From the sequence record NC_031113.1: a DNA stretch of 44,513 nt. One strand, written 5' to 3'. The notes under the pieces are model-generated. The model saw only the letters and a program-made list of their open reading frames with translations, ran no database searches and was not told where the DNA came from. Below are positions 966 to 42,352 of the stretch, one piece after another; the first letter of the stretch is position 1; each line of letters opens with the position of its first letter. Position numbers and translations under genes: made by a program. This DNA comes from Escherichia phage Gluttony.

Positions 966-1470
966 ATCGCCCCGACGAGTTAACTATAGTGCAACCAATA
1001 GGTTGGTTGCAAGTAAATTTTGCAACGTTTATCGCATAAATTTTCGAGACCAGATCGCTGCACGCCCGTCGAATGGCCGCGATGTTCTTCGGGCAGTCTT
1101 CAATGATGACCAGTTCCGATACGTCCGCATAGCAGACCATTTTGAACACGGCGCACGCTTTAAACTCTGGCGGCGGGGTATCGTCCAGCATGTGGCGCAT
1201 AAACAACCGGCCTACGGGGAATACTTCCAATTGCTCGACGGTAGTCTCCCAGCATTCTCGCTGCCGGTTGGTCAGATACGCGATCTCGAAGCCTTGCTCT
1301 TTGTACATGGTCAGCAGCGGCAGCATATCCATGTTCAGATCTTCGCGTATATGCGCTTTGTGCCACTTCGCCCAAAAGGTGGATTTTGTTTTTATACCTG
1401 GCACCAGGTCGGCACGCGCATCGCTTGAACCATTAATAACGCCATCAAGATCACAAATCAGTAGTTTCAT
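955..1470 (-). CDS. HAD-superfamily phosphatase-like protein
   Basis: N-terminal LICDLDGVI matches the HAD motif I (DxDG) pattern. Confidence 0.5.
   Translation of the reverse strand: MKLLICDLDGVINGSSDARADLVPGIKTKSTFWAKWHKAHIREDLNMDMLPLLTMYKEQGFEIAYLTNRQRECWETTVEQLEVFPVGRLFMRHMLDDTPPPEFKACAVFKMVCYADVSELVIIEDCPKNIAAIRRACSDLVSKIYAINVAKFTCNQPIGCTIVNSSGRYGP
984..1012 (-). promoter_or_regulatory. Sigma70-like promoter (TTGCAA-17-TATAGT) inside the palindrome TTGCAACCAATAGGTTGGTTGCAA
   Basis: -35/-10 spacing read on the minus strand; contains the recurring ATTGGTTGCA motif; lies inside the 3' end of the upstream ORF. Confidence 0.4.
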
Positions 1471-1691
1471 TTTAATTCCTCAACCAAATCCGAACGAACA
1501 ACTCTGGCGGAAAACTTGTTACACACAAGATGCCAATTTGCGGTTATGACAAGCCAGCCGGTAAGGTCCAGACCCAGGATATATTCTGGACGTGACACTC
1601 GCTTCACACGATCGCGGCGCGGATCGATGTTATAGTCTCTTTGCATTCGGTCTACTACCGCAGGGTCGCGGTCAACGATTAAGATATTCAA
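1467..1691 (-). CDS. Hypothetical protein, 74 aa
   Basis: ORF track; overlaps neighbours in operon fashion. Confidence 0.35.
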   Translation of the reverse strand: MNILIVDRDPAVVDRMQRDYNIDPRRDRVKRVSRPEYILGLDLTGWLVITANWHLVCNKFSARVVRSDLVEELK

Positions 1692-2157
1692 GGAGTTCTC
1701 CTTCGCTCATTATTTCAATTTGTGCGCTGCCGGTTGGTGGCGCTTCGTCAAATATTATCAATTGCTGGCACTTGTTATTGCTCGGCCCGACTTCACCGGT
1801 GACAGCGTGTATAAATCTCACCCGCCAGTCCAGAAGAATTATCATATTGGCAGTCTTCCGGGCCAACTTCGCCCACTTCGTCGACGTGTCCTGATTCAGT
1901 AGCATGACAGTCCGGCGACCGTGCGCTGCGCATTCCACCCACGGCAGCGGGTCGGAATACGGCGGATTGCACCACTTCCACCCTTTCAAATCAGCCCAGT
2001 CCACATCAAGCGCGCTATGTTCTGCTGTGAAGTAACGCGGTAGCAGGTGGTTGGCATCGCTTGCCGCCATATCGTAACGGAATCGGTATTTCCGACGAAG
2101 CGGTTTGAATAAAGCTGGCGGCGTGCGCCAGCTATCTTTTTGCTCACTCTTCTGCAT
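1672..2157 (-). CDS. Phage DNA N6-adenine methyltransferase (Dam-like)
   Basis: WRTPPALF and CNPPY motifs typical of the phage Dam family. Confidence 0.8.
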   Translation of the reverse strand: MQKSEQKDSWRTPPALFKPLRRKYRFRYDMAASDANHLLPRYFTAEHSALDVDWADLKGWKWCNPPYSDPLPWVECAAHGRRTVMLLNQDTSTKWAKLARKTANMIILLDWRVRFIHAVTGEVGPSNNKCQQLIIFDEAPPTGSAQIEIMSEGELLEYLNR

Positions 2158-2608
2158 GACCTGGATCTATCGCGTATAAAGGGACTTTATTGCCGGTTTT
2201 CATAACGCGCTGGACGCGCTTTGACTCCTCGGCGCTCATTGGGCGCATATCAGTGCTATAACCACCGTTTGATGTGTGCCGCCACGCTATCAGCACCAGA
2301 TCTTTCCGGTCGATCTTAGACTGGCGGCCCTTCGGTCGCACGTACGCCTCGGCCCGTTTGCAATGCTCGCGCAGACCTTCGGCAGTGATGCGGTTTAGCG
2401 CGACGGTGGTTGTGTACCCGGTGCGCTGCATAATACCCATCAACCCATACAGCAGTTCGAAGCGCTCCTCTAACTCCTTGCGCATCTTTTCCTCGCCTTC
2501 ATAGCTCGCCAGGTAGGTATCCGCCAGCGCGTTCGCCCGTTCGACCTGTTCGCGGGCTTCGAGGCATTGCGCGGCCCAGTAATTTTTCTCTTCTTGTAAA
2601 ATTTTCAT
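2144..2608 (-). CDS. Hypothetical protein, 154 aa
   Basis: ORF track; coiled-coil-like N-terminus. Confidence 0.45.
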   Translation of the reverse strand: MKILQEEKNYWAAQCLEAREQVERANALADTYLASYEGEEKMRKELEERFELLYGLMGIMQRTGYTTTVALNRITAEGLREHCKRAEAYVRPKGRQSKIDRKDLVLIAWRHTSNGGYSTDMRPMSAEESKRVQRVMKTGNKVPLYAIDPGHAEE

Positions 2609-2655
2609 CGTGTTGTCTCCAGGTATTAAAAAGGGCGTCCAAACCGGACACCCTC

Positions 2656-2684
2656 AATATAAGGCAACCAATATGACTATGCAA
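2656..2684 (-). promoter_or_regulatory. Sigma70-like promoter (TTGCAT-17-TATATT) built from two ATTGGTTGC motif copies
   Basis: Read on the minus strand upstream of the ATG at 2608. Confidence 0.4.
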
Positions 2685-2689
2685 CCAAT

Positions 2690-3013
2690 TTACGCATAAA
2701 AGTTCGGGTCGCGTGCAACGTCTACCAGGTAAAGGTTGCTTATGCGGTTGCCGTAGTGCCCTGGAGTGCGCTGGCGGCACACAACGGCGAAGCCTGGAGG
2801 GATTGTATTGCCCGTCTCAATAATCCACGCCACGCGTGCGCCAGACAGCGTCTTGCCGTTGTATTCGATACGTGTTCCGCCATCGGCGGTATTGAGGTTG
2901 CCAATTTTGCAGCCGGTGGACTTCAGACGAATGACGCCGGTTTTGCTGTCGTAGGAGAATAACTGGTTAGTCATTGCAACCGAAAAATCGATGGCTTCGA
3001 ATGAAGTATTCAT
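2690..3013 (-). CDS. HNH_3-like (NUMOD-type) endonuclease-like protein, possibly degenerate
   Basis: RVAWIIETGNTIPPGF...NRISNLYLV resembles the HRLVW...IDH...NLRLV pattern, but the catalytic D-H is not evident. Confidence 0.45.
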   Translation of the reverse strand: MNTSFEAIDFSVAMTNQLFSYDSKTGVIRLKSTGCKIGNLNTADGGTRIEYNGKTLSGARVAWIIETGNTIPPGFAVVCRQRTPGHYGNRISNLYLVDVARDPNFYA

Positions 3014-3705
3014 TTTAAATTTTCCTCGTTAACCGCTATCGCGAAGCCGCGCGGAGTGAGCGACCGGATTAATTTTGTGCGGGCTGATTTGCCTCCGAGG
3101 CGACTATACTGCTTCGAGTACCCTTTTTCAACGAAAACAGGTCTCTTCTCTGGCATACGGAAGCCGTTGCCGGTCCATAAGCAGGTCAGCTTCGGATATG
3201 AATCGCGGGCGTTGATGTATTCCGGGAAGAGCGGGTGTACGTCATCCTCCGGCAGATATCCCCCATACTCCCACGGGTCGAATGAGTGATCCGGCTTGCG
3301 CCACTGGGTGGAAAGCACACTGCGCGGATTCTCAATCATATACGGCACTTCGAAGAAGTCACCCAGGTACGCGGCGATCTTCGCGGTGCGCACCGCCTTA
3401 AGCTGGAAGGCCGGGTCGCGGGCGCGTTTGCGCGGGAAAGCTGGCGCACCGCTCACCGCCAGATCAGTACACGGCGGGAATGCGTAGATGATATCTGGCG
3501 TACCGAAATCGCCATTCATCGCGCGGTCTACAAAGTCCAGATCAATAAACTCATTGCGATATCGGATCCCGCGACCATAAATCCGGTAGTCCAGGTACGA
3601 CCCGTGATCGGCTTCGGAGTAGTTAAAACAGTAGCACTTATGCCCCATCTCGGCAGCACGCTCAATCATCAAGCCGCTGCCGTCAAACAATGACCAGATT
3701 ATCAT
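3010..3705 (-). CDS. DNA cytosine-C5 methyltransferase-like protein, short at 231 aa
   Basis: Motif I-like LFDGSGL, PC motif FPPCTDLAVSGA, ENV-like IENP. Confidence 0.5.
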   Translation of the reverse strand: MIIWSLFDGSGLMIERAAEMGHKCYCFNYSEADHGSYLDYRIYGRGIRYRNEFIDLDFVDRAMNGDFGTPDIIYAFPPCTDLAVSGAPAFPRKRARDPAFQLKAVRTAKIAAYLGDFFEVPYMIENPRSVLSTQWRKPDHSFDPWEYGGYLPEDDVHPLFPEYINARDSYPKLTCLWTGNGFRMPEKRPVFVEKGYSKQYSRLGGKSARTKLIRSLTPRGFAIAVNEENLK

Positions 3706-5126
3706 TTGCGCGCCTTCTTAGCTTTCATGTATTCCATCAAGTCGTCCTGAATATCCCGCTTACTGTCGCGACGCTCGGCGACCAGTTCGTCCAGTGTTCC
3801 GCGCGCCTGGATAATGTAGACGAATACCGGTCGAGGGTGCCCGGCCTGCATCTGGCGAACCGGCCCGATACGCTCAACGATCTGCGAAAAGTGCTCAAAG
3901 TTCCAGGTATCGGAGAAGATTGCCAGGTGATGACCGCCGTCCTGCAAGTTAAGGCCGTGGCCTGCCGATGCCGGGTGTGCAAACATGATGGGGATCTCAC
4001 CCCTGTTCCACGCTTCCATATCCTTATTGCCCTGCTTACCTTTACCCAACGCAACGCCGTGCGGAAATTTCTTCTTAAGTCGTGCCAGGTCATGCTTATA
4101 CTGATACGCAACGAGCAACGGCGCGCCGTTCAACTCCTCTACGATACTCTCCAGCGCGTCCAGCTTCGCGTCGTGAATCTTCACCCACTCGTCGGTCCGT
4201 TCGCCGTCTTCGTCCACCTTATACACGGCCCCGGATGCAAGCTGAAGGCACTTAATTGTCTTCGACGCCGCGTTCGCCGCTTCCACTGTTCCGCTTTCCA
4301 GTTCTGCAAATAGCTCGCTTTCAAACTGGTCATAAATCTTACGCGCTTTCTTCGGCAGGTCCACAACAACCGGCGTATAGATTGGCTTGTCGCACCCGAA
4401 GTATTCCGCCGCGTCAACGGTGAGGGATACATCTGACAGACGTTGTTGTATCTCTTTCTCGGAGTTCTTTAGCGGAGCGTGCTGCATAGTGAAGCTGCTA
4501 GGCTTAACAGGCTTGCTAATGAACCAGCGGTCGGTAAATGCCTTATAGCTACTGCCGAGGCGTTCGCCACCGTCGACAAACCACGTCTGACCCCATAAGT
4601 CTTTTAGCCCGTTTGGCGCTGGTGTGCCGGTAAGGTTAATCCAGCGCTTGACGTGTTTATGTGCAATCGCTGCCAGTGCGCGGGCGCGCTTGCTCCCCTG
4701 CTTGCTACGATAGCCTTTCAGCTTAGTCGATTCATCGGCAACAACGACCGTAAAGGGCCACGCATCGCCGTAATAGTCGACCAGCCACTCAACCACATCA
4801 TAGTTAACACAAACCACGTTAGCGTCGCTCTCCAGCGCTGCAATGCGGTCCTTCTCTGGACCAGTGCCGTCTACTACCAGCAGGGCTGGGAAGCGCCATT
4901 TCTCCTGCTCCGGGGGCCAGGTGCCGGACGCAACGCGCAGCGGGGCCAGCACCAGTACGCGGTCCTCCTGGTTGGACAGGATACCCGTCTGGAACATTTT
5001 ATTCAGCGCCCACATTGTCGCGCCGGTTTTACCCGATCCCATTGTCGCCCATATATTACATCGCTTATGCTTGAGGATGAACGCGGTTATCAACTTCTGA
5101 TATTCGCGGCGTCGGAATCGTGCCAT
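3702..5126 (-). CDS. Superfamily II (SNF2/DEAD-like) DNA helicase
   Basis: Walker A MGSGKTG, DEST box, helicase C motif HPASAGHGLNLQ; start placed at MARF (5126) after a GGCGGA RBS. Confidence 0.8.
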   Translation of the reverse strand: MARFRRREYQKLITAFILKHKRCNIWATMGSGKTGATMWALNKMFQTGILSNQEDRVLVLAPLRVASGTWPPEQEKWRFPALLVVDGTGPEKDRIAALESDANVVCVNYDVVEWLVDYYGDAWPFTVVVADESTKLKGYRSKQGSKRARALAAIAHKHVKRWINLTGTPAPNGLKDLWGQTWFVDGGERLGSSYKAFTDRWFISKPVKPSSFTMQHAPLKNSEKEIQQRLSDVSLTVDAAEYFGCDKPIYTPVVVDLPKKARKIYDQFESELFAELESGTVEAANAASKTIKCLQLASGAVYKVDEDGERTDEWVKIHDAKLDALESIVEELNGAPLLVAYQYKHDLARLKKKFPHGVALGKGKQGNKDMEAWNRGEIPIMFAHPASAGHGLNLQDGGHHLAIFSDTWNFEHFSQIVERIGPVRQMQAGHPRPVFVYIIQARGTLDELVAERRDSKRDIQDDLMEYMKAKKARK

Positions 5127-5130
5127 ATCT

Positions 5131-5364
5131 TTATTCCGCCTTTTTCCAGACTTCAGTTTCACTGTTCCAGTTCCTTTTTGTGGCGTCGTAGTTGGTGGCG
5201 TGTCCGACGTGGACACCGGTAGCCCGGAAGCTCTTAAATTTTTGCCAGCACACCGTCAACGGCAGCGGATCATTCATGCCTGCGATAAACCATACGCGAT
5301 CGCCCGGTTTACATTCGCCCAGCTTGGTGAGTCGGTAATGTTCTTTCATCGTCATGTCTCCCAA
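5131..5364 (-). CDS. Hypothetical protein, 77 aa
   Basis: ORF track. Confidence 0.4.
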   Translation of the reverse strand: MGDMTMKEHYRLTKLGECKPGDRVWFIAGMNDPLPLTVCWQKFKSFRATGVHVGHATNYDATKRNWNSETEVWKKAE

Positions 5365-5392
5365 AAATGGCGGGACAAGCCCGCCGTATTAA

Positions 5393-5566
5393 TTATTTTT
5401 GTTCTGCACGGTAGCGGCGCTGCCGTTCGCGCTCTTTTTTATTGCGGCACGATTTGCACTCTGCCCGATACCCGTCTGGACTTCGCGCAGTCTTACCGGT
5501 GTATTTGTGGAACTGGGATAGCGGCTTTACACAGCCGCAATTACTACAACGTTTTTCTTCAATCAT
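5393..5566 (-). CDS. Small zinc-ribbon protein
   Basis: CSNCGC...CKSC cysteine pairs; start at MIEEK with a GAGGA RBS. Confidence 0.45.
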   Translation of the reverse strand: MIEEKRCSNCGCVKPLSQFHKYTGKTARSPDGYRAECKSCRNKKERERQRRYRAEQK

Positions 5567-5606
5567 CTCTAAAATCCTCGATATGGCTAACCGGCACACT
5601 ATACCG

Positions 5607-5885
5607 CTATGCGACCAATTCAGCAACCAATAAATCACAGTCGGCTATGCTGTCGATAACGCGAACGTCCGCACCGCGGCGGGCCATTCGCTCATGTTCT
5701 CGTACCTGGTGCGGCTTAGGTTTACCGCCTGGGCGCTTCACTTCGACGAAAACTATCTTGCCGTTGATGATGATAATCAGATCGGGCGCGCCTGCGCGCC
5801 CCTCCCACGCCACTTTACGGCAGAATCCGCCAACCTCTTTAACCCGTTTCATAAGGTGACGCTGCACCTTGCCTTCTGGTGTCAT
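5607..5885 (-). CDS. VRR-NUC domain nuclease
   Basis: VFVEVKRPGGKPKPHQ...E motif; ATG overlaps the upstream stop (ATGA). Confidence 0.7.
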   Translation of the reverse strand: MTPEGKVQRHLMKRVKEVGGFCRKVAWEGRAGAPDLIIIINGKIVFVEVKRPGGKPKPHQVREHERMARRGADVRVIDSIADCDLLVAELVA

Positions 5886-6514
5886 TGTCGGCTTTTCCTT
5901 ACGGCAGCGATGGCAGGTCCGATAAACTTCTTCATTTCGTCCGGGGTAAACCGATCCCCGCGGGCTATGTTGCACTCTACGCAGCACGGCACGCAGTTAT
6001 CTTTCGTATGGCCTACTGCGTTGTCGAGTCGGTCCGCGCCATTGTCGCCGGTGAATCCGCAGTATGCGCACGGCTGAGAAGTAAGGCGCAGCACGTCCTC
6101 TGTAGTAAGGTCGGTGTTTAGCCCCTTCCTTTCGTCTGCCTTACGGTACTGAAAGAGTTTATAGTAAGCGCGGATCTCTGGTGTCCGGTGGTTGTACTCG
6201 CGGCGTGACTTATTAGCGCACGATCGGCATTCTTTACGAATATGTGACCCGTTTGCTTGGCTTCCTGGCCGGAAGTTTTCCGGCGTGAGCGGCTTGCGCT
6301 CACCGCACGTACGACATGTTACGATCTCCCCGGTGTACTCTCGCCATACTTCTCTCGGCGGCGCGCCTCTTTCCTTATCCCGTCTCTCTTTCTTATATGC
6401 CGCCATGCATTTGGCGCACCACGACTGGCCCTTGTTGAAAGCGGACTCATCTTTACCCGTATTACAACGCCCACAATGTTTCATATACACCTCGAAAAAG
6501 AAAACGCCAGACAA
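5882..6514 (-). CDS. HNH endonuclease with N-terminal zinc-finger repeats
   Basis: CAYCGF...GH...N..CCVECN HNH-type motif. Confidence 0.7.
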   Translation of the reverse strand: MSGVFFFEVYMKHCGRCNTGKDESAFNKGQSWCAKCMAAYKKERRDKERGAPPREVWREYTGEIVTCRTCGERKPLTPENFRPGSQANGSHIRKECRSCANKSRREYNHRTPEIRAYYKLFQYRKADERKGLNTDLTTEDVLRLTSQPCAYCGFTGDNGADRLDNAVGHTKDNCVPCCVECNIARGDRFTPDEMKKFIGPAIAAVRKSRQ

Positions 6515-6550
6515 TAATGCCCAACGTTTCCGCTAAAAGCAACATTTCCG

Positions 6551-8842
6551 CTACTTGCGGTAGCGATACATGCAATCGCCCTCTGCGGCAAGTGGGAAGC
6601 CTTTCGCCCAAATAGGCAGGTCGCACATCAGCGCGCAAAGCTCCTCTGTCGTGTAGTCGTCGGTGTCCGGCACTTCTGTGATCAATTCATCATGCACCGA
6701 TAGAACGATTTCATAGCCCGCAGCTTCAACGCCAGGCATTGACCAGGCGAGAATATCACGGCACAACGCCTGTACTATGTTCTCCGTCAGTTTGCCGCCG
6801 TAGGTATACTGGAAGCCCCACTGGCGCGTCGTCTGATTCTCGCCCTGATATTTAATGCGGGTGCTGGTGCGTTTCTTGCCGGTATCTTCGTCGATCTCGG
6901 TCGTCACTGACAGCGCAATGCCTGGATAACTCATAATACGCCCCGACGGCAACTCAATTTTCAACCACCACCCCGCGGCGTTCGGGTCGTCGCGTTCCTC
7001 GTCGAAGGTTGGGTCATGCTTCGCCTTCGTGCGGACTATCTTGAGCGCTTTCTTACCATCCGGGCGAACGTTCGCGCCAGCCCAGTACGCTTTGCCAGGA
7101 TTGCGGATTGCACACAACACCGCGTCCTCAAGCTCGGCCCAAAAGGCTACCGTCTTCGGGTGAGCCTCGCGCCACATGCGTTTAATCGCATCACACGTAA
7201 GCCATACGTTTTTCGGCAGTATGTAAGTCGGGCGCTCGTCCTTCTTGCCAGGCTTTGGCGGTCGCTTCGCTTCGTTAATGCGGGCGTACTCATAACCCCG
7301 TTTAGCCGCTGCCCAAATGTGATCGGGGAATGTGCCCTTCATGACGTCCGCCATCGCGTAAAGGTCGAGGCCCAGGTTTTTAGCGAACTGCAAGAACGCC
7401 GCGACGCCGCCACCATAGCCCAGCCCCAATTCGCACGCCTTACCGATCTGGCGTAAGTCCTTGCGGTTAGCTTTAATGTAGTCCGGGTCCAGGCCGAACA
7501 TCTTACCGGCAGTCTCACAATAGATATCGCGACCGGCCTTAAACACCATTAGCGCGGTTTTCTCGCCTGCGATCCAGGCAAGTCCACGCCCTTCCACGTT
7601 GGAGTAGTCCGCTACGACAAACTTCTTGCCCTTAGCCGGGATAATGCACCCGCGAACGGTCGAGGCTGTTAGCTTAGATATGTCATACGCCCAGTGCGCG
7701 GTCCCGCGTAACAGGGAATTGATGCCGTTGGTGAGCATGTGCGACCGGACCCAAAAAGCAACGTCGCTCTCGCCTTCGCGGCGCTTAATCTTCCCTTCGT
7801 GATCGTCGCTATACTCGCCGCGTGCCAGGTTTTGAGGCTGGAAGCCTTTACCCGCCCAGCGCAGCGTGCGCTTTGCACCACCATACTGAAGACACCCACG
7901 GCGGCGACCATCTGCGGATAAGCCGTTAACTAGCGGATTGTACTTAGTCGATGCCGTTGATGACGCTCCGAGGCGCATTTCTATAAGCGCTTTGCCTTCG
8001 TCGGGGAAGTCCGGGTCTTCAAGCAGGTCGTTAAGTGTGGATTTCTGCGCGTTGTGGATCGTGAACGCCGGGGCGATATCACGTAGGATTGGCAGGAAGT
8101 CATTGCCGGTCAGCTTACCGCCAAATCGCTCCCAGGCTTCCTCTTTCAATTCTTCCTTATGCGCCTGTACCGCTTTGATCGCAGCGCGCGCCAGGTCAAC
8201 GTCCACGTAGAAGCCGCGGTCGTTAATCAATTGGTCGATAAGCAGGATTTCGTCTTCCTTCGGCGTATTACCCCAGTCCGGTATGCGCCAATAGACTTCC
8301 CTCATCGCGATGATATCCAGCGCGGCATAGCGCAGGAATTTAGCCCACTCCTCGGGGTGCGTCTTGCGCGTGTAGCGGCGGATTTTGTAGGTCTTAGGGG
8401 TAGGCTTACAGAATCGTTTAATCAGCGCCTTGCCTGCCTTATCCTTCGCGTGCTCTGCGTCAACGCCCAGCACCTGACACTGCATATCGAGGCTACCCGG
8501 CAGCGCGTGCCGAAAGGCCATAATCATGGTATCTTCGATCTGGCTTACCGGCAGATCTATACCCCACTTCTCGCGAATAACAAGGCGGTCAAACAGGAGG
8601 CCGTTAGCCATCACTATTTTTGCTTTCTTGCGGGATACACGGCGGAGTGCCTTGCGCAGTTCACGCGGCATTGTTGGGGATTCAGTGGCATCCCATGTCT
8701 GCACGCGGCCTTCGTCGATGGCGTAGGTGCAAATCATAATCTCGGTGGTTTGGTGCTCTGCGTAGGCGTACGCCCCTACTTTCTTCAGGTCCACCCCGCT
8801 AAATGTCTCGGTGTCGAGAAACAGACGTTCGAAGTCTTTCAT
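6551..8842 (-). CDS. Family A DNA polymerase with 3'-5' exonuclease domain
   Basis: Exo I LDTETFS; motif A DYSNVEGR; motif B RKDLRQIGKACELGLGYGGG; motif C VHDE. Confidence 0.9.
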   Translation of the reverse strand: MKDFERLFLDTETFSGVDLKKVGAYAYAEHQTTEIMICTYAIDEGRVQTWDATESPTMPRELRKALRRVSRKKAKIVMANGLLFDRLVIREKWGIDLPVSQIEDTMIMAFRHALPGSLDMQCQVLGVDAEHAKDKAGKALIKRFCKPTPKTYKIRRYTRKTHPEEWAKFLRYAALDIIAMREVYWRIPDWGNTPKEDEILLIDQLINDRGFYVDVDLARAAIKAVQAHKEELKEEAWERFGGKLTGNDFLPILRDIAPAFTIHNAQKSTLNDLLEDPDFPDEGKALIEMRLGASSTASTKYNPLVNGLSADGRRRGCLQYGGAKRTLRWAGKGFQPQNLARGEYSDDHEGKIKRREGESDVAFWVRSHMLTNGINSLLRGTAHWAYDISKLTASTVRGCIIPAKGKKFVVADYSNVEGRGLAWIAGEKTALMVFKAGRDIYCETAGKMFGLDPDYIKANRKDLRQIGKACELGLGYGGGVAAFLQFAKNLGLDLYAMADVMKGTFPDHIWAAAKRGYEYARINEAKRPPKPGKKDERPTYILPKNVWLTCDAIKRMWREAHPKTVAFWAELEDAVLCAIRNPGKAYWAGANVRPDGKKALKIVRTKAKHDPTFDEERDDPNAAGWWLKIELPSGRIMSYPGIALSVTTEIDEDTGKKRTSTRIKYQGENQTTRQWGFQYTYGGKLTENIVQALCRDILAWSMPGVEAAGYEIVLSVHDELITEVPDTDDYTTEELCALMCDLPIWAKGFPLAAEGDCMYRYRK

Positions 8843-16062: not shown

Positions 16063-16091
16063 TTGCACCCTGCCTGGCGCCCTGCTATATT
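16063..16091 (+). promoter_or_regulatory. Sigma70-like promoter (TTGCAC-17-TATATT) formed by two TATTGGTTGCAC copies
   Basis: Spacing counted directly; 29 nt upstream of the ATG at 16120. Confidence 0.5.
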
Positions 16092-16434: not shown

Positions 16435-16704
16435 ATGGCACGTAGACGCGCTAAATGGTTATCCTGGTATATTCCCCTGCATAGCATCCGTTTATGGGCG
16501 CAGAATGCGATTGAGGGTGATTCTGTGTTCTGGAGCTATCGGGATGACGTCAAGCCGCTGACGCAGACCAAAATGCTGCACCAGTTCATGAACGAACACG
16601 GACTGCCGGTGAAAACATCATTGCAACCAATCGGCATCCGTATTACATTACGCCGTAAGCCAATCGTTGCGCAGGTTGGCAAACACAAGAGACTGAGCAA
16701 ATGA
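16435..16704 (+). CDS. Hypothetical early protein, 89 aa
   Basis: ORF track. Confidence 0.45.
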   Translation: MARRRAKWLSWYIPLHSIRLWAQNAIEGDSVFWSYRDDVKPLTQTKMLHQFMNEHGLPVKTSLQPIGIRITLRRKPIVAQVGKHKRLSK

Positions 16705-17404: not shown

Positions 17405-17541
17405 GTGCGACGGTCCGTGATATGCTAATGCATAACCGCTTTGAGGTTGGCGGTCGTGTATTCCGTAACTACTTCGTTGCGCGCGCCTGGGCGCGCCACA
17501 TTGGCAAACCAGAGGGGGCAATACGATGCTACACGATTTGA
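17401..17541 (+). CDS. Small hypothetical protein, 46 aa
   Basis: Hand-translated; start overlaps previous stop. Confidence 0.3.
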   Translation: MSATVRDMLMHNRFEVGGRVFRNYFVARAWARHIGKPEGAIRCYTI

Positions 17542-17813
17542 TATATTGGTTTGGATTGGGGTGCGCGACACTCTTTGCCACGGTGCTGGCGCTGTTGGTA
17601 TGGGTGTTCCTGATTTGGCCCGCGGTGGAAGCAGCCAGCATTACCCGCATGACGTTCCAGATATACAAGCGCCGTGGCATCACGGAGCACCCTACCAGGT
17701 TGCGCATGTGGTGGCTATGGTATCGCGATATGATCGGCGGGCGAATGTTCGAGGCCGTCCGATCGGAAGGGTGGGAGTGGAAAGGCGTCGGCAAGTGGTC
17801 CATTTTCGATTAA
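17526..17813 (+). CDS. Membrane protein, 95 aa
   Basis: Hydrophobic N-terminus LGCATLFATVLALLVWVFLIW. Confidence 0.4.
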   Translation: MLHDLIYWFGLGCATLFATVLALLVWVFLIWPAVEAASITRMTFQIYKRRGITEHPTRLRMWWLWYRDMIGGRMFEAVRSEGWEWKGVGKWSIFD

Positions 17814-18892: not shown

Positions 18893-19054
18893 ATGTTAAA
18901 AAGCATTCTTGATCATAACGCCGACGCGCTCGCCGCGCTGGCTAAAACCGAAGACCCAGGCGCTCGCGCCATTATCGCGGACACTATCAGTCATGCTGGC
19001 GTATTTGACGCGAAGCTGCCGAGTCCGCCACCGCCGGAAGATCCAGAAGTGTAA
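18893..19054 (+). CDS. Small hypothetical protein, 53 aa
   Basis: ORF between the endolysin and a strong terminator. Confidence 0.3.
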   Translation: MLKSILDHNADALAALAKTEDPGARAIIADTISHAGVFDAKLPSPPPPEDPEV

Positions 19055-19060
19055 ACTACC

Positions 19061-19090
19061 AAGCCCGGATAATTCCGGGCTTTTTTATTT
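19061..19090 (+). terminator. Rho-independent terminator after the lysis cassette
   Basis: AAGCCCGGA-TAAT-TCCGGGCTT followed by TTTTTTATTT. Confidence 0.75.
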
Positions 19091-19149
19091 CTTGGCCCAG
19101 TACCGTGGTATATTGCCTCCAGGTCATCTCAAACTGGAAGTAAATTAAT

Positions 19150-20292
19150 ATGCACCCGCAAACTAAAATTACCGATGAGCAATTGATCGCAGAATTGCAA
19201 GCAGGCACTACGTCGAAAGATATTGCGAAGAAATACGGCATTGCCCTTCGAAATGTCTACATGCGCAAAGCCCGCCTGTCGAAGAAAGGTATTGGTCACG
19301 GTAACGATGCCGTAATTCGTAAGCGCGTTGCTGATGGCTTCGGTGTTAAACGCGTATCCGCCCTGGTGCGCGGAAATGGCGAAGAGGTCATGTCGTGGGT
19401 TATCACTGAGCAAGACAAGGAGCGCCAGCTTGAAGCAATGCGAGCCGTTGTCGAGGGTATGAACAGCGAAATCACACCGGCAGCGCCAGTAAACGCCCCG
19501 CCAGTACCGATCCAGGCGCTAGACTTGCTCAACCTGTACACCGTGTCCGACTTCCACCTGGGTATGCTGGCATGGGGCGAGGAGACTGGCGAAGATTGGG
19601 ATATGGCGATCGCCGAAGACCTGTTCTACCGCTGGTTTGTCGAAGCCTTCGCCCGCGCACCGGACGCAGGCACTGCCGTGATCAATATCCTCGGCGATAT
19701 GGCGCACTTTGATAGCCTTGATGCCGTCACACCGGCAAGCGGTCACGTATTGGACGCCGACACCCGCTACCAGAAACTGGTACGCTACATGATTCGCATG
19801 GTGCGCAACGTGGTAGACCTGGCGCTGCAAAAACACCACAAAGTCAAACTTCTAATCGTCCAGGGGAATCATGACGAGTCTGGCATGATTTGGCTGGCTG
19901 AAATGTTCAATACACTGTACGAGAACGAGCCACGCGTCGAGGTGGACACGTCCCCGGACGTGTACAAAATGGTGCAACACGGCAAGACCACGCTGTTCTT
20001 CCACCACGGGCACAAAGCGCGCTTCGATGCTATCGAGACCGTCATGATTTCTAAATTCAGACAGGCTTTCGGATCCAGTGAGTACAGCTACGCACACGTA
20101 GGCCACTTGCACCACCAGAAGATTGTAGAATCCCGCAACATGATTGTTGAACAACACCGGACCCTCGCAGCGAAAGACGCATATGCCAGCCGCGGCGGTT
20201 GGATGTCCGGTCGTAGTGCCAACGTCATCACCTACAGCGCCAATTACGGCGAAGTGGCGCGCTTAACCATTAGCCCGGAAATGTTGAAGTAA
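19150..20292 (+). CDS. N-terminal HTH fused to a calcineurin-like metallophosphoesterase domain
   Basis: HTH TTSKDIAKKYGIALRNV; phosphoesterase motifs DFH, GDMAHFD, GNHDE, HHGH, GHLHH. Confidence 0.6.
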   Translation: MHPQTKITDEQLIAELQAGTTSKDIAKKYGIALRNVYMRKARLSKKGIGHGNDAVIRKRVADGFGVKRVSALVRGNGEEVMSWVITEQDKERQLEAMRAVVEGMNSEITPAAPVNAPPVPIQALDLLNLYTVSDFHLGMLAWGEETGEDWDMAIAEDLFYRWFVEAFARAPDAGTAVINILGDMAHFDSLDAVTPASGHVLDADTRYQKLVRYMIRMVRNVVDLALQKHHKVKLLIVQGNHDESGMIWLAEMFNTLYENEPRVEVDTSPDVYKMVQHGKTTLFFHHGHKARFDAIETVMISKFRQAFGSSEYSYAHVGHLHHQKIVESRNMIVEQHRTLAAKDAYASRGGWMSGRSANVITYSANYGEVARLTISPEMLK

Positions 20293-20421
20293 CGGCAACC
20301 AGTAATCCTCCCAGCCTGCCGATTTGGTGGGCTTTTTTGTGCCTGTTATAATCCCCTCAGATGGCAGGGCCGTCTCTTATGTTGCCGATGGTCGGCGCAT
20401 ATGCACAAAAGGGCTTATATC

Positions 20422-20973
20422 ATGGCAGAAATTAAAGTTAAAGGTCGTCGCGCTAAACTGGACGGACGAGTCGCAGTAACCCCGCGCCGTAAACCAGGCG
20501 AGCAAACAGAGCATACCAATCTCGGACCTGAGATCGAATATGGCAAGCGTCGTAAAGGCGGCAAATGCGGACGCCCTACTGACTACAGATCCGTTTACTG
20601 CGACCAGCTTCGCCGCTATTTTGCCGACGCCGACGCCTGGCAGGTCAACTACTCCGATAAAGGCGCTGCGCAAGTAATTCCCCGCAACAAAATGCCAACC
20701 TTCGGTCGATTTGCCGCGGAAATCGGCGTTGGCGTCGCTTGCCTGTATCGCTGGGCGCGTGCACATGAGGAGTTCGCCGAGGCTATGGCGGACGCTATGG
20801 AGCTACAGAAAACTTTCCTGATGGAAGCTGGCGGCGTTACCATCGCGGCGGGCTTCGCCACGTTCCTGCTTAAAGCCAACCACGGCGTCCGCGATGATGT
20901 TCCACTGGATGACGACGAAGATGATAACGGCGACGTCGTTGTCGAACCTACCGGCAAAGGCCAGGGTGAGTAA
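20422..20973 (+). CDS. Terminase small subunit (Terminase_2-like)
   Basis: GGKCGRPTDY and YCDQ motif; acidic C-terminus; directly upstream of the large subunit; start at MAEIK (track ORF begins at 20401). Confidence 0.7.
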   Translation: MAEIKVKGRRAKLDGRVAVTPRRKPGEQTEHTNLGPEIEYGKRRKGGKCGRPTDYRSVYCDQLRRYFADADAWQVNYSDKGAAQVIPRNKMPTFGRFAAEIGVGVACLYRWARAHEEFAEAMADAMELQKTFLMEAGGVTIAAGFATFLLKANHGVRDDVPLDDDEDDNGDVVVEPTGKGQGE

Positions 20974-22358
20974 TGCGTAATTATGCGGCAGAACACCGCG
21001 CCCTGGAACGCGCGATCGCAAAGCGCAACCGACCGCCGCGCCCTACGCGTGTTGCGCAGGCCGTCCGCCTGTATCAGCCTGATTGCCTTCCCCACCAGGT
21101 GGAACTACTGCGCGATACAAAGACCAAAATCCTCGGCCTGTGTTCCGGCTTCGGTGGCGGTAAGTCATGGGTTGCGGCGCGCAAGGTCATCCAGCTTCTG
21201 ACACTGAACCCTGGTCATGACGGCATCGTTACAGAACCGACAATCCCCCTCCTGGTTAAAATCATGTACCCGGAATTGGAAAAGGCGTTTGACGAGGCGG
21301 GCTTCCGGTGGAAGTTCAATAAGCAGGACAAGATCTATAACGTGCTTGTGAAAGGCAAATGGACCCGCGTTATCTGTGAATCAATGGAGAACTATACCCG
21401 CCTGATCGGGGTCAACGCCGCGTGGATTGTTGCCGATGAATTCGACACCACGAAGCAGGACGTTGCGCTGGCGGCGTATCACAAATTGCTCGGCCGTCTG
21501 CGTGCGGGTCTGGTCCGCCAGTTTGTCATCGTGTCCACCCCGGAAGGCTACCGGGCAATGTACCAGATTTTCGAGGTGGAGAAAGACAACCAGAAACGCT
21601 TGATCCGGGCGAAGACCACGGACAACCACCATTTACCGGCAGACTTTATCGACACGCTCCGTAGTCAGTACCCAGCTAACCTGATCGACGCGTACCTGAA
21701 CGGCCTGTTTGTTAACCTTACGTCGGGCGCGGTATACAAGATGTTTAACCGTGAGGAGAACGCCAGCACCGAAGAAGTGCAACCGGACGACACGCTGATT
21801 ATCGGTATGGACTTTAACGTCACGAAAATGGCGGCGGTCGTGTACGTCAGACGGCAGCGCATCACCGAAAACAAGGAGTTCCGCGACGAGATTCACGCAG
21901 TGGATGAATTTGTGGACCTGTTTGATACCCCGGCTATGATTGAGGCGATCGAGGAGCGATACCCCGATCATTGTGCTGCCGGTCGTGTTGTTGTTTACCC
22001 GGATAGCAGCGGCAAGTCTCGCAAGACTGTCAACGCATCGTCGTCCGATATCGCGCAACTGGAAGACGCGGGCTTCGAGGTGGAGTATGACAGCGTTAAC
22101 CCTCCCGTGAAAGACCGATTGATCGCGATGAATACGATGATGTGCAACTCGAAGGGCGTGCGCCAGTATTTTGTCAACCTGGATAAATGCCCTACACTAG
22201 CGAAATGTCTGGAACAGCAGGTCTACGACCTGAAGAAAGGCGAGCCGGATAAAACCGCCGGTGTGGACCACATGAACGATGCCGCGGGCTATCCAATTGC
22301 GCACCTGTTCCCAGTGATTCGTCCGATCGCCGTTGTTCCAACTGTAGACTTCTACTAA
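20973..22358 (+). CDS. Terminase large subunit
   Basis: Walker A-like GFGGGKS; size and position before the portal gene. Confidence 0.8.
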   Translation: MRNYAAEHRALERAIAKRNRPPRPTRVAQAVRLYQPDCLPHQVELLRDTKTKILGLCSGFGGGKSWVAARKVIQLLTLNPGHDGIVTEPTIPLLVKIMYPELEKAFDEAGFRWKFNKQDKIYNVLVKGKWTRVICESMENYTRLIGVNAAWIVADEFDTTKQDVALAAYHKLLGRLRAGLVRQFVIVSTPEGYRAMYQIFEVEKDNQKRLIRAKTTDNHHLPADFIDTLRSQYPANLIDAYLNGLFVNLTSGAVYKMFNREENASTEEVQPDDTLIIGMDFNVTKMAAVVYVRRQRITENKEFRDEIHAVDEFVDLFDTPAMIEAIEERYPDHCAAGRVVVYPDSSGKSRKTVNASSSDIAQLEDAGFEVEYDSVNPPVKDRLIAMNTMMCNSKGVRQYFVNLDKCPTLAKCLEQQVYDLKKGEPDKTAGVDHMNDAAGYPIAHLFPVIRPIAVVPTVDFY

Positions 22359-22368
22359 GGAAACGACC

Positions 22369-23889
22369 ATGACCGTTAACGTTGACAACCAGCACCCTCT
22401 CTATGCGCGCATCGCGCCAGAGTGGAAAATGATTCGTGACTGTGTAGCAGGGGAGCGCGCCGTGAAGGCGTGCGGCCCCTTGTACCTGCCTCATCCCGCC
22501 AGTGGCGACAATACTGACCCAAAAGCACGGGCGCGATATAAGGCGTACAAGCAACGCGCTGTATTCCTGAACGCCACCGCCCGCACACTTAACGCGCTGT
22601 TAGGCGTCGCCTTTGCAAAACCTGTAAGTCTGGACCTTTCTGGGGCGATGGCTGACCTGATTGACGACGTAGACGGCAGCGGTATGCCATTGCCGCAACT
22701 TCTGCGCGGTGCTATGTCGGAAGTTCTGCAATCGGGCCGCGCGGGCTTTATGGTGGACTACGACCGCCAGGCTAACTTTGATGAACTGGGTAACGTAGTT
22801 CCGCAGACAGCCGCCGAGATGGCGTCACACCGCCCGCTTATCCGCCTGTACACGGCAGAACAGATCATCAACTGGCGGCAGACCCACGGCGTCGATACGC
22901 TAATTGTGCTGAAGGAAACGGACGAAATCAGCACCGAAGACCCGGACGACTTCGCAAACCACGAAGTAACAATCTGGACCGAGCTTCGCATGATTGACGG
23001 CAAGGCACACGCCCGCCGCTGGTTTTACAACGCGGACACGTCCGAAGTGCAGATGGACTTGCCGCGTGGATTTACCCGCACCGATCTGGTGCCGTTGGTG
23101 GATGCTTCCGGTAATGCGCTTACGCAACTACCGTTTTGCTGGTGCGGTGCGGTGGACAACAACGCAACGCCTGACGCCGCTCCGCTGGCGGATATCGCAT
23201 CCATCAACATTAAGCACTACAACGCCGAAGCGGACGTCGCCGAGATTGCGCACATCGTGGGCCAGCCTACCCTCGTTGCGACGGGCTTGACCCAATCATG
23301 GGCGGACAAGAACCTGAAGGGCGGCATTGCCCTCGGTGCGACTAAGGGCGTTATCCTGGGCCAGAACATGGACGCTAAACTGATCCAGGCGGAGGAGCGC
23401 AACTTGTCTGTTGCACTGTGTGAGCGTCGCGAATTGCAAATGGCTAAACTTGGCGCGGCCCTGGTCGAGAAGGGGACAGCACCTAAGACGGCAACGGAAG
23501 CGGCCTACGATGCGCAGACTGATAACAGTATCCTGTCACTGATCGCCGGTAACGTCGAGAAGGCTTTCAACCGTGCGCTGCAAATCGTCCAGCTATTCAC
23601 GGGCGACACCGCCGACCAGCGTGTGACGCTGAATAAGTTCTACACCGAAATCACGGTTGATGCGCAGCTTATGACCGCGATGATGTCGGGTGTGCAGACG
23701 GGTACGGTCCGCCTGGCTGACTTCATCAAGTGGATGATGGCGCAGGGTGTCATCGACGACTCGCAAACCGTCGAGCAGGTTGAAGACGAATTGCGGAATC
23801 AGAATCCACTGCCCCAAATGTCCTCCGATGCGGTAGAATCTACCGAAGAAGACCCGGACAAGGTAGCGGACAATGTCGAAGACAATTAA
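22369..23889 (+). CDS. Portal protein
   Basis: 506 aa immediately after the terminase large subunit; acidic C-terminus. Confidence 0.75.
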   Translation: MTVNVDNQHPLYARIAPEWKMIRDCVAGERAVKACGPLYLPHPASGDNTDPKARARYKAYKQRAVFLNATARTLNALLGVAFAKPVSLDLSGAMADLIDDVDGSGMPLPQLLRGAMSEVLQSGRAGFMVDYDRQANFDELGNVVPQTAAEMASHRPLIRLYTAEQIINWRQTHGVDTLIVLKETDEISTEDPDDFANHEVTIWTELRMIDGKAHARRWFYNADTSEVQMDLPRGFTRTDLVPLVDASGNALTQLPFCWCGAVDNNATPDAAPLADIASINIKHYNAEADVAEIAHIVGQPTLVATGLTQSWADKNLKGGIALGATKGVILGQNMDAKLIQAEERNLSVALCERRELQMAKLGAALVEKGTAPKTATEAAYDAQTDNSILSLIAGNVEKAFNRALQIVQLFTGDTADQRVTLNKFYTEITVDAQLMTAMMSGVQTGTVRLADFIKWMMAQGVIDDSQTVEQVEDELRNQNPLPQMSSDAVESTEEDPDKVADNVEDN

Positions 23890-24976
23890 TCAACATTTGG
23901 CGGATCGAATGATTCGCCGTCACATCTTCACCCAGCGCCTGAGCAATGATCAGGCGCGGAGGGTGCTGGCTATGTGGGAGAAGTTCCGGCCCACTTTACT
24001 TGGTAAGCTGACCGAGTTACTTGATGGCAAAAAGTCCATGAGCAACAAGGCACTTACCACACTGTTAACGCAACTCGACAAGACCGTCAAAACGGAACTG
24101 CGCGCCGAGTTTAAAGTGCTGGCGGATAGTCTTCAGGAGTTTGCCGACACCGAGGCCGATTACCTCGCCGACACATTAACGGCAGCGATCCAGCCGGTGG
24201 TCGCCGTACCTGCGGTCGAGGTGGTGGGTGTAGTAACAGGCGCGCAGGTCGCAGCGACTGCGATGAAAAACCCGTTCCAGGGTAACACCATGATGCAATG
24301 GCCGGATTCACTTTCAGAGTGGACAAGGACGCAGATCGGCAATCAGGTGCGCGCCGGATTCATCCAGGGCAAGCCGACTATGGAAATTATCGCGGACGTG
24401 AGGCGCGCGCTCGGCGGTCGTAGTGCGCAAGCAATCTCAAGCGTTGTTAAGTCCGCTGTCAACCACTATGCGGCGACCGCCCGCGAATTAATGGTGAAAG
24501 CTAATGACGATATTCTCGAAGGTCGCCAATGGTTGGCCACATTGGACACTCATACTTCCCCTATGTGCCAGCTACGCGATCGCCTGTTTTATCCTGTTGA
24601 CGTCACTCCCGACACCAAAGGAAAACGCGGCGGGAAAGTGGTGGCGGGATCACAATATGGCGCTGGTCCGGGCAAGCTGCATTATTGCTGCCGTTCGACG
24701 GAGACGTGGAAAGTTAAGGGCATGGAAGACTGGCCCAGTGGTAAGCGTCCGGCACTGAAGGCTGACGCAGGCAGATTGCTGAGTGAGCAGGTAGACGCGC
24801 AGACTGATTTCTTCTCATGGGTGCAGCGCCAGCCGCGCCATATTCTGGAGGAGTTATATGGAGTGCAACGCGCCGACCAGATTATGCGCGGCGTGAAAGT
24901 GCCGAAGATGTTTACCGATTCTGGCGAACTGATGACTATTGCACAGCTTAAAAACCGGGGGTTATGGCGTGATTAA
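23873..24976 (+). CDS. Head morphogenesis / minor head protein (Mu F or SPP1 gp7-like)
   Basis: Position after the portal; 367 aa. Confidence 0.55.
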   Translation: MSKTINQHLADRMIRRHIFTQRLSNDQARRVLAMWEKFRPTLLGKLTELLDGKKSMSNKALTTLLTQLDKTVKTELRAEFKVLADSLQEFADTEADYLADTLTAAIQPVVAVPAVEVVGVVTGAQVAATAMKNPFQGNTMMQWPDSLSEWTRTQIGNQVRAGFIQGKPTMEIIADVRRALGGRSAQAISSVVKSAVNHYAATARELMVKANDDILEGRQWLATLDTHTSPMCQLRDRLFYPVDVTPDTKGKRGGKVVAGSQYGAGPGKLHYCCRSTETWKVKGMEDWPSGKRPALKADAGRLLSEQVDAQTDFFSWVQRQPRHILEELYGVQRADQIMRGVKVPKMFTDSGELMTIAQLKNRGLWRD

Positions 24977-36256: not shown

Positions 36257-36997
36257 ATGTTAACGAAAAAGGTTAAAAGCGATATCGCCGCGCACGTTGC
36301 GGCATGTCTGCCTGAAGAAGCCTGTGGCCTTGTTGTCATGGTGGGCCGCAAACAAGTATTTGTCCCGTGCATGAACGTATTCGAAGACCCGACCGGCGTG
36401 CGCTCACGCAGAGACGCATTCACGATTAGTGATATGGCCTGGATGGATGCCGAGGATATGGGCGACGTCGTGCGAGTAGTCCACTCGCATCCAGGCCAGC
36501 GAGAGCTTACACCCTCACTTGGCGACGTTAACGGATGCAACGGCAGCGGCGTAGTCTGGACCATCACTAACGAATATGGCGACTTTATCGAGATCGACCC
36601 TGAAGACCCGCCGCTGGTAGGCCGCCGATTTGTTCTCGGAATTACAGATTGTTATGGCCTCGTCATGGACTGGCACAAAAAGCAGGGTGTAAACCTGCCA
36701 GACTTCCGCGTGCCGTATAACTGGTGGGAGACAGGCGAAAATCTGTATATGGATAATTGGTACGGTGCTGGCTTCAGGGAATGCGAGGAGAATACGCCGG
36801 GGGCAATGGTCATCATGCAGATTAGCGCGCCTGTGCCTAACCACGCTGGGATATTCCTTCCGGGCAACCAACTACTACACCATATCTACGGCAGCCTGTC
36901 GAGCGTGATTCCCTTCCGGGCAGGATTTTTCCGGGACAATGTGGTTAAATGGGTACGTCATAAAGACCTACCGGGGAATATAACAGAATGGCAATGA
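36257..36997 (+). CDS. Tail assembly protein, lambda gpK-like (JAMM/MPN plus NlpC/P60-like)
   Basis: HSHP...D JAMM-type motif; position. Confidence 0.7.
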   Translation: MLTKKVKSDIAAHVAACLPEEACGLVVMVGRKQVFVPCMNVFEDPTGVRSRRDAFTISDMAWMDAEDMGDVVRVVHSHPGQRELTPSLGDVNGCNGSGVVWTITNEYGDFIEIDPEDPPLVGRRFVLGITDCYGLVMDWHKKQGVNLPDFRVPYNWWETGENLYMDNWYGAGFRECEENTPGAMVIMQISAPVPNHAGIFLPGNQLLHHIYGSLSSVIPFRAGFFRDNVVKWVRHKDLPGNITEWQ

Positions 36998-42034: not shown

Positions 42035-42036
42035 AG

Positions 42037-42060
42037 AAAGCCCCGAAAGGGGCTTATTTG
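42037..42060. terminator. Bidirectional intrinsic terminator
   Basis: AAGCCCC-GAAA-GGGGCTT with T-rich flanks. Confidence 0.6.
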
Positions 42061-42272: not shown

Positions 42273-42303
42273 GGTATCATCTCCTATATTTGGTCGAGTT
42301 TCA

Positions 42304-42331
42304 GTATTACACCGCTCAACCAGGATTGCAA
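42304..42331 (-). promoter_or_regulatory. Promoter for the lipoprotein moron (TTGCAA-16-TAATAC) containing AATTGGTTGCA
   Basis: Hexamer spacing read on the minus strand. Confidence 0.45.
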
Positions 42332-42352
42332 CCAATTTATGAGGATTTAGCT

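Follow-up and report, generated by a model that had tools for sequence, protein, structure and literature searches.

The nuclease-type branch of the metallophosphoesterase (MPE) superfamily includes Mre11/SbcD, the DP1 subunit of PolD and PdeM. In the MPE of Pseudomonas putida, His81, located three residues past the metal-binding Asp78, and His113 of the GNH motif are essential for DNA cleavage and dispensable for the hydrolysis of bis(p-nitrophenyl) phosphate (bis-pNPP), and the products are a mix of 3'-OH and 3'-PO4 ends (PMC7826289). Among phages, a family of MPE genes was reported to be persistent in 508 of 522 Drexlerviridae (PMC13164509). In this work, we describe a member of that family encoded on the plus strand at positions 19150-20292 of Escherichia phage Gluttony (sequence record NC_031113.1), in which the MPE domain is fused to an N-terminal helix-turn-helix (HTH). 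The window, as the term is used below, is the whole stretch of 44,513 nucleotides that was analysed; it belongs to Dhillonvirus, a genus of HK578-like siphophages.

The evidence favours the placement of the MPE domain in the nuclease-type branch, and the HTH-MPE protein is neither a packaging component nor a protein phosphatase. The function that we favour, with moderate confidence, is that of a Mn-dependent DNA nuclease that serves phage DNA metabolism, is tethered through its HTH and acts independently of Rad50. The sequence is already present in GenBank, and the gene is an ordinary member of a very large phage family that is already known, catalogued and routinely annotated.

Family membership and distribution

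The gene is the sole long open reading frame (ORF) of its interval and a real gene. Chance is not a sufficient explanation for its matches, since homologues reach E = 1e-248 and PHROG 704 ('DNA repair exonuclease') is matched over its full length (residues 5-380 against profile positions 2-390 of 390; E = 3.1e-161, 538 bits). The name of PHROG 704 is a computational label. In GenBank, members of the family are called 'calcineurin-like phosphoesterase', 'DNA repair exonuclease', 'winged HTH protein', wHTH domain protein, 'transcriptional regulator' or 'sigma-70 region 4 protein'. The protein is 100% identical to its counterparts in Escherichia phages Lust (KX534338) and Pride (KX534341), as is the 3.2 kb of DNA around the gene; over the same 3.2 kb, about 100 further Dhillonvirus members show 91-93% identity.

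Homologues were found by tblastn in 2,057 phage records, 1,679 of which cover at least 80% of the protein. These include Dhillonvirus, Kagunavirus, Jerseyvirus and Drexlerviridae (Webervirus, Guelphvirus, Tunavirus and others), as well as Rhizobium phage 16-3 and phages of Vibrio, Campylobacter, Lactobacillus and Synechococcus. PHROG 704 itself includes Rtp61, 16-3 p044 and ST16, which is the T1 homologue. A search of 1.84 billion cluster representatives returned 4,676 clusters at E <= 1e-3 and 1,135 at E <= 1e-30, nearly all of them 370-420 aa long.

The preliminary description of this DNA had regarded the fusion of an HTH to an MPE domain as non-standard, a view that the family does not support. 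At least 100 aa precede motif I in 141 of the 150 top representatives, and the fusion is conserved to this extent in the relatives examined. The window protein, with an extension of about 120 aa before motif I, has the arrangement of PHROG 704 as seen in AlphaFold2 models. Distant members keep the N-terminal HTH, including a Lactobacillus phage protein whose GcrA-type domain scores above the Pfam threshold; HTH-less members also exist. The HTH-MPE fusion is the standard architecture of PHROG 704 and not an unusual one. As a genome feature the gene is ordinary because the family is catalogued and routinely annotated and the fusion is its norm.

Domain architecture and catalytic motifs

An AlphaFold2 model was built on a family alignment of 75 sequences (33-97% identity) and has a mean predicted local distance difference test (pLDDT) score of 92. 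It divides the protein into three modules, namely an HTH, a beta-hairpin with a helix, and an MPE domain that forms an alpha/beta sandwich from residue 121 to the C-terminus:

19150..20292, plus strand: HTH-MPE coding sequence, ATG start, 380 aa, PHROG 704 member
19174..19281, plus strand: N-terminal trihelical HTH, residues 9-44 (helices 9-17, 22-29 and 33-44)
19339..19464, plus strand: family-specific connector, residues 64-105, made of a beta-hairpin (64-73, 79-88) and a helix (90-105)
19510..20289, plus strand: binuclear MPE domain, residues 121-380, with motifs I-V

In the connector, W83 is invariant and G77 near-invariant, and the MPE domain carries an additional conserved block, VTPxSGHxLDADxR, at residues 192-206. 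All five MPE motifs are present: D134-x-H136, G182-D183(-x-x-H186), G239-N240-H241-D242, H285-H286-G-H288 and G318-H319-x-H321. Across the 75-sequence alignment, D134, H136, G182, D183, N240, H241, H286, G318 and H321 are invariant, while H186, H285, H288 and H319 are conserved in at least 90% of sequences. The seven metal-ligand positions of the superfamily (D134/H136, D183, N240, H285/H286 and H319/H321) are thus occupied by invariant or near-invariant residues. Many family members significantly match HTH families of Pfam, such as Sigma70_r4_2 (1.5e-9) and GerE (2.4e-8), with further matches to HTH_1, HTH_8, HTH_23 and HTH_28, and the Metallophos family is matched by 21 of the 75. The window protein's own Pfam scores are sub-threshold, and the domain calls therefore rest on the AlphaFold2 model and on these family-level hidden Markov model (HMM) matches. 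On that predicted structure, both the HTH and the MPE assignments can be regarded as secure. The N-terminal HTH fused to a five-motif MPE domain, which had been read from the sequence alone in the preliminary description, is confirmed by the model, the invariant residues and the family matches.

Several lines of evidence bear on the branch of the superfamily to which the domain belongs. The top Foldseek matches are Mre11 (6.7e-8) and DP1 (7e-8). In a separate fold comparison, the best matches are likewise DNA nucleases, with the generic phosphodiesterases LpxH (13.8), MJ0936 (13.4) and YfcE (12.7) close behind; PPP protein phosphatases score only about 9. When the MPE-domain profile was compared with PDB sequences, it found only Mre11/SbcD of T. 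maritima (E = 0.16, not significant), in an alignment covering motifs I and II, where SDWHLG/GDLLH pair with TDxHLG/GDFLH of the family; the next match was 'Nuclease MPE' 6nvo (E = 1.7). Among NCBIfam models, TIGR04123 (ligase-associated DNA endonuclease PdeM) was the commonest catalytic match, found weakly in 22 of the 75 members (best E = 1.6e-5). No PPP phosphatase model occurred among the 25 most often matched of the 87 NCBIfam families recorded for these members.

The motifs point the same way. Motif II has the form GDxxH in essentially all 150 representatives, not the PPP form GDxVDRG, and the window protein has SDFHLG, GDMAHFD and GNHD where PPP enzymes have GDxHG, GDxVDRG and GNHE. The equivalents of His81 and His113 of the P. 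putida enzyme are H186 and H241. In addition, Rhizobium phage 16-3 encodes a separate NinI-like phosphatase besides its HTH-MPE homologue. The placement in the nuclease-type branch is based on all of these observations together: the fold matches, the PDB and NCBIfam matches, the GDxxH motif, the two histidines, the missing PPP signatures and the separate NinI-like protein of 16-3. Because generic phosphodiesterases score just slightly lower, we go no further than to infer nuclease activity, as we do for DNA as the substrate and for the biological role.

Other results weigh against this interpretation or lend it no support. All Pfam scores of the window protein lie below the gathering thresholds (Metallophos_2, 23.3 bits against 27; Metallophos, 20.0 against 21.5; GerE HTH, 15.1 against 23.5), and its TIGR04123 score is 11.5 bits against a cut-off of 150, which does not make it a PdeM. 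When HHalign compared the family profile with SbcD of E. coli and NinI of lambda, each as a single sequence, the probability was below 2% for both, which does not discriminate between the two. A phmmer search of PDB with the single sequence returned spurious repeat-protein matches only. The HTH is the least conserved region of the protein, its subtype varies across lineages, and it could mediate something other than DNA tethering. Moreover, no experimental study of any family member was found in the searchable literature. The preliminary description had proposed an HMM search to decide between PPP phosphatases and Mre11/SbcD nucleases, and on this question the evidence favours the nuclease branch, although the window protein itself stays below the formal Pfam and TIGR04123 cut-offs. 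It had also stated that a formal search showing no MPE domain would count against it. Taken literally, the result is borderline, with the Pfam MPE families sub-threshold, although the AlphaFold2 model and the family matches secure the domain.

Proposed function

In the mechanism that we favour, the HTH, perhaps aided by the connector with its invariant W83, would anchor the protein on DNA. The HTH and connector would thereby stand in for the Rad50/SbcC ATPase and the capping domain of canonical Mre11/SbcD. A two-metal centre, presumably of the Mn2+ type and with D134, H136, D183, N240, H286 (or H285), H319 and H321 as ligands, would hydrolyse DNA phosphodiesters, with H241 acting as the general acid and H186 providing a nuclease-specific contact with the DNA phosphate. 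Single-stranded regions, hairpins and blocked or damaged ends arising during phage replication, recombination and repair would be the probable targets, and the 3'-phosphatase and kinase pair adjacent to the gene in many relatives could heal the resulting ends. Since the P. putida MPE yields both 3'-OH and 3'-PO4 ends, an MPE nuclease beside a 3'-phosphatase/5'-kinase would make biochemical sense. This function is further supported by context, as in relatives the HTH-MPE gene lies at the end of, or adjoins, DNA-metabolism genes.

It is possible, though we hold this only tentatively, that the family represents a new mechanistic class, that is, an Mre11-like nuclease without Rad50/SbcC or capping domain whose 3'-PO4 ends are healed by the adjacent enzyme pair in a self-contained end-processing pathway. 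The HTH-MPE family might also correspond to a classical function of T1 genetics that is not known to have been mapped, such as host-DNA breakdown.

Flanking signals and transcription unit

In Dhillonvirus, the gene order is holins, endolysin, a small ORF, the HTH-MPE gene, the terminase small subunit gene (TerS), the terminase large subunit gene (TerL) and the portal gene. The elements around the HTH-MPE gene are as follows:

19061..19092, plus strand: intrinsic terminator closing the lysis cassette, stem-loop 19061-19082 and U-tract (terminator scan, RNA fold)
19106..19114, plus strand: extended -10 promoter-like element TGGTATATT, without a good -35 (pattern search)
19136..19140, plus strand: Shine-Dalgarno sequence GGAAG, 9 nt 5' of the ATG (direct reading)
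20313..20342, plus strand: moderate terminator-like hairpin (20313-20333) and U6 (terminator scan; RNA fold -12.3 kcal/mol, z = -1.9)
20344..20352, plus strand: consensus extended -10 element TGTTATAAT, 49 nt before TerS, invariant in relatives
20401..22358, plus strand: TerS (20401-20973) and TerL (20973-22358) (PHROG 3064 terminase, E = 2.6e-73; relatives' annotation)

The strong upstream terminator noted in the preliminary description was found again, with a 9-bp GC-rich stem of -16.8 kcal/mol (z = -5.6; none of 200 shuffles as stable) followed by U6AUUU. Its stem is kept in phages welsh and Zumzum, with variation in the loop only. A sigma-70 scan demanding both hexamers found nothing upstream of the HTH-MPE gene; the extended -10 elements came from a separate pattern search. 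On sequence grounds, TGGTATATT is the probable promoter of the HTH-MPE gene and TGTTATAAT that of the packaging genes. In three Dhillonviruses the block CCGTGGTATATTG does not vary, even where an insertion of about 145 bp parts the promoter from the terminator. The motif TGNTATATT occurs five times in the window, against about one copy expected, and five copies were reached in just 1 of 100 shuffles:

16083-16091, 16465-16473, 17539-17547 and 19106-19114, plus strand; 36977-36985, minus strand: copies of TGNTATATT

The four plus-strand copies lie between 16.0 and 19.1 kb, and TGNTATAAT at 20344-20352 is the only copy of its kind in the window. The TGNTATATT copies and TGTTATAAT may represent sigma-70 promoters of the phage without a -35 element.

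That the gene stands directly before TerS holds true, as TerS starts at 20401, 108 bp downstream. However, the further claim that it heads the packaging operon does not appear to hold, because the hairpin at 20313-20333 and the extended -10 element intervene and are conserved, and because adjacency to the terminase is restricted to Dhillonvirus among the lineages examined. The downstream hairpin is kept in welsh and Zumzum, and all four flanking elements are perfectly conserved in these two phages despite insertions. With conserved, putative terminator and promoter elements on both sides, the gene has the look of a self-contained unit of promoter, gene and terminator, and it appears to be transcribed separately from the lysis cassette before it and the packaging genes after it. 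Repeat and inverted-repeat scans around the gene revealed no operator-like motif.

Both flanks of the gene (19083-19105 and 20293-20312) are insertion hot spots in relatives. Phage welsh carries an insert of about 145 bp with a small ORF (welsh 6790-6935) between the upstream terminator and the promoter, and phage Zumzum has an extra 213-bp ORF (Zumzum 22411-22623) between the stop codon of the gene and the downstream hairpin. Upstream, between the endolysin gene and the strong terminator, a 53-aa ORF (18893-19054, plus strand) matches phrog_11068, of unknown function (E = 3e-38), and is kept in relatives. The TerS leader (20353-20400) contains two small hairpins, AGATGGCAGGGCCGTCT and the palindrome GCCGATGGTCGGC, which are 100% conserved in relatives about 91-93% identical overall, with a fold stability like that of shuffles (z = -0.9). 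Several Dhillonvirus records in GenBank are linearised just upstream of this leader, and its hairpins could be a pac-related or translational control site.

Genomic neighbourhoods in relatives

The neighbourhoods were hand-sampled from 12 annotated phages and two metagenome look-ups, and nine lineages were compared for terminase adjacency, which was found only in Dhillonvirus. It does not occur in the Drexlerviridae, Guernseyvirinae, Rhizobium phage 16-3, or Vibrio and Campylobacter phages examined, and across these relatives synteny with TerS and TerL is not conserved, nor does co-transcription appear likely. In Drexlerviridae, the HTH-MPE gene closes a block of helicase, VRR-NUC and Dam genes, just before the lysis genes. 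In Guernseyvirinae, it lies in an opposite-strand island within the tail module. In Raoultella phage RP180 (Kagunavirus, 3995-6161), the island holds the HTH-MPE gene, a HAD 3'-phosphatase and a P-loop kinase, and in Salmonella phage KE17 (Jerseyvirus, 3747-6684) it holds the HTH-MPE gene, a superinfection-immunity gene, an HNH endonuclease and Ant, which suggests that the island cassette moves as a unit. The homologue of a Campylobacter phage follows a DNA ligase and a Holliday-junction resolvase, that of a metagenomic contig ends a block of 5'-3' exonuclease and primase-helicase, and in a Lactobacillus phage a distant homologue is located 2 kb upstream of TerS.

Recurrent neighbours are a small HAD-type 3'-phosphatase annotated as 'polynucleotide kinase' (PNK; motif DxDGT) and a P-loop kinase (GxxGxGK[DT]), which together resemble a split T4 Pnkp. 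Kagunavirus RP180, Webervirus BUCT705 and Sauletekiovirus AAS23 carry the MPE, phosphatase and kinase genes as an uninterrupted trio, and in ACG-M12 an HNH gene is inserted within it. The authors of the KanT1 study likewise reported PNK and deoxynucleoside monophosphate (dNMP) kinase as the commonest genes downstream of the family member (PMC13164509). In Dhillonvirus and T1, PNK-like genes are located elsewhere in the genome, far from the MPE gene; the MPE-PNK linkage is therefore frequent and not obligatory.

In the window, several genes for nucleic-acid enzymes are located in the early region (387-3705, minus strand):

387-965, minus strand: phrog_9871 protein (PHROG match)
955-1470, minus strand: HAD-type 'polynucleotide kinase' (phrog_415)
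1672-2157, 2690-3013 and 3010-3705, minus strand: apparently split DNA methyltransferase pieces around an HNH endonuclease
2144-2608, minus strand: very small (154-aa) 'DNA ligase' family protein (phrog_10530)

The HAD 'PNK' of the window shares just 24% identity with those of other genera (BLASTP). The ORF at 387-965 was considered as the P-loop kinase of the trio and rejected, as BLASTP shows no homology. Farther downstream, a 367-aa 'head morphogenesis' ORF (23873-24976, plus strand) may correspond to the Dhillonvirus Nmad5 gene, reported as the trigger of the Tmn defence system (PMC11846954).

In at least four lineages, the gene that directly follows HTH-MPE encodes an HNH endonuclease; these are probably homing endonucleases using a conserved target, though a functional link is conceivable:

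ACG-M12, 5197-5691; Jerseyvirus, 5159-5659; Vibrio phage, 5010-5519; T1, 42028-42510: HNH gene downstream of HTH-MPE
Lactobacillus phage JNU_P9, 1999-2529: gene annotated only as 'endonuclease' downstream of HTH-MPE

Alternative explanations

The same protein could instead be directed against the host. A host-takeover or counter-defence nuclease would act in early to mid infection on the host chromosome or on host defence loci or nucleic acids, supplying nucleotides and silencing defences, as reported for Gp48 of mycobacteriophage A10ZJ24. Gp48 is a five-motif phage MPE with phosphodiesterase activity; it damages the genomic DNA of the host, and the phage needs it to overcome the defences of the host (PMC12287305). 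The autonomous look of the gene, with insertion hot spots on either side, and the superinfection-immunity gene and Ant in the accessory island of Guernseyvirinae would suit such a role. We nevertheless consider it unlikely, as Gp48 has neither the HTH nor the connector and appears to come from another subfamily, PADLOC found no match to any defence-system protein, and the gene belongs to the persistent core of Drexlerviridae, whereas counter-defence genes typically evolve fast. Furthermore, it is not among the genes of escape mutants of the Dhillonvirus members SECphi4 and SECphi18 given in the main text of the respective study (its Table S2 aside), and it is not mentioned in the Dhillonvirus anti-Tmn study (PMC11846954). 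A role in the healing of ends draws mainly on the neighbouring genes. Here, a phosphoesterase would remove 2',3'-cyclic or 3'-phosphates from broken RNA (e.g., tRNA cut by anticodon nucleases) or DNA, partnered by the HAD 3'-phosphatase, the P-loop kinase and the ligase of the phage, much as the MPE module works in bacterial Pnkp. In the Pnkp of Clostridium thermocellum, the phosphoesterase module is indeed an enzyme of the MPE superfamily. The contiguous trio in Kagunavirus, Webervirus and Sauletekiovirus, the downstream PNK and dNMP kinase genes listed by the KanT1 authors, and the PNK-like HAD protein and small ligase-like protein of the window phage all agree with such a pathway. Yet in Dhillonvirus and T1 the PNK genes lie far away from the MPE gene, the nuclease-specific histidine of GDxxH is conserved and the best fold matches are DNA nucleases, an HTH would be an odd partner for a tRNA-repair enzyme, and the association with PNK fits equally well with PNK healing the 3'-PO4 ends left by an MPE-type nuclease. 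Such a phosphoesterase is, in our estimate, distinctly improbable.

The HTH might also be read as the essential part, the protein being primarily a transcription factor of middle or late phage promoters or of its own promoter, with the MPE domain regulatory or secondary. The HTH does match LuxR/GerE, sigma-70 region 4 and the DNA-binding domain of GcrA. The position of the gene is repeatedly one where early genes end and lysis or packaging genes begin, and some GenBank names are those of a transcriptional regulator or sigma-70 region 4 protein. We give this little credence, because it is the MPE catalytic residues that are all invariant and the HTH that is least conserved, some members lack the HTH altogether, and no repeated operator-like motif surrounds the gene. 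Least credible of all, even when taken jointly, are a Ser/Thr phosphatase of the lambda NinI type and an accessory nuclease of packaging acting with the terminase. The MPE fold is common to PPP phosphatases, and the gene adjoins TerS in Dhillonvirus and lies near it in the Lactobacillus phage. However, the PPP signatures are replaced and 16-3 has its own NinI-like phosphatase, while terminase adjacency is missing in most lineages and, in the window, a terminator and a new promoter precede TerS. The Rad50-independent, HTH-tethered nuclease of phage DNA metabolism remains the function that we favour.

Significance

The annotation of this gene should read HTH-fused nuclease-type MPE, and not protein phosphatase, packaging gene or simply transcriptional regulator. 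This family provides a core gene to several groups of abundant siphophages used in phage therapy and defence research, namely Drexlerviridae including T1, Dhillonvirus including SECphi and BASEL phages, and Guernseyvirinae. As no published assay was found, a simple biochemical and genetic study would close an annotation gap across thousands of genomes, and it could show how an Mre11-type active site works without Rad50.

Comparison with known systems

Lambda NinI and the other PPP Ser/Thr phosphatases share the MPE fold and the general metal-ligand positions with the window protein, but neither their signatures GDxHG, GDxVDRG and GNHE nor a closest fold similarity to PPP is found in it. DP1 of PolD, an archaeal 3'-5' proofreading exonuclease, is just 13% identical to the window protein. 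It is a subunit of a polymerase holoenzyme and carries an OB fold, not an HTH; this phage has no PolD.

The likeness to Mre11/SbcD lies in the histidines of GDxxH (H186) and GNH (H241), both kept in the window protein. The C-terminal capping and DNA-binding domain of Mre11/SbcD is, in contrast, predicted to be missing, because the MPE fold of the AlphaFold2 model runs to the C-terminus at residue 380. The window protein has instead an N-terminal HTH and beta-hairpin module, and the phage has no Rad50/SbcC partner: no Rad50/SbcC-like gene occurs in an annotated complete Dhillonvirus genome or among the window ORFs. Lacking both the ATPase and the capping domain, the protein is therefore not a canonical Mre11/SbcD.

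PdeM and the P. putida MPE, a Mn-dependent single-stranded DNA endonuclease associated with ligase and Lhr (TIGR04123, 6nvo), are similar in that they stand alone, without a capping domain or ATPase partner. PdeM makes 3'-PO4 ends, which would fit the 3'-phosphatase genes beside members of the HTH-MPE family. The window protein differs in scoring below the TIGR04123 cut-off and in lacking an Lhr partner; no Lhr-Core gene is annotated in the neighbourhoods examined, in which one homologue adjoins a DNA ligase. Gp48 is likewise a phage MPE that has the five motifs, shows phosphodiesterase activity and affects DNA (PMC12287305). By its description it is set apart as a single-domain protein with motif I at residue 10, which therefore leaves no room for an HTH or connector.

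The closest likeness is to PHROG 704 itself, with the same full-length match, three-module architecture and catalytic residues and no structural difference. What varies within this family is the position of the gene: Dhillonvirus has it between the lysis and packaging genes, Drexlerviridae ahead of the lysis cassette, and Guernseyvirinae within the tail module.

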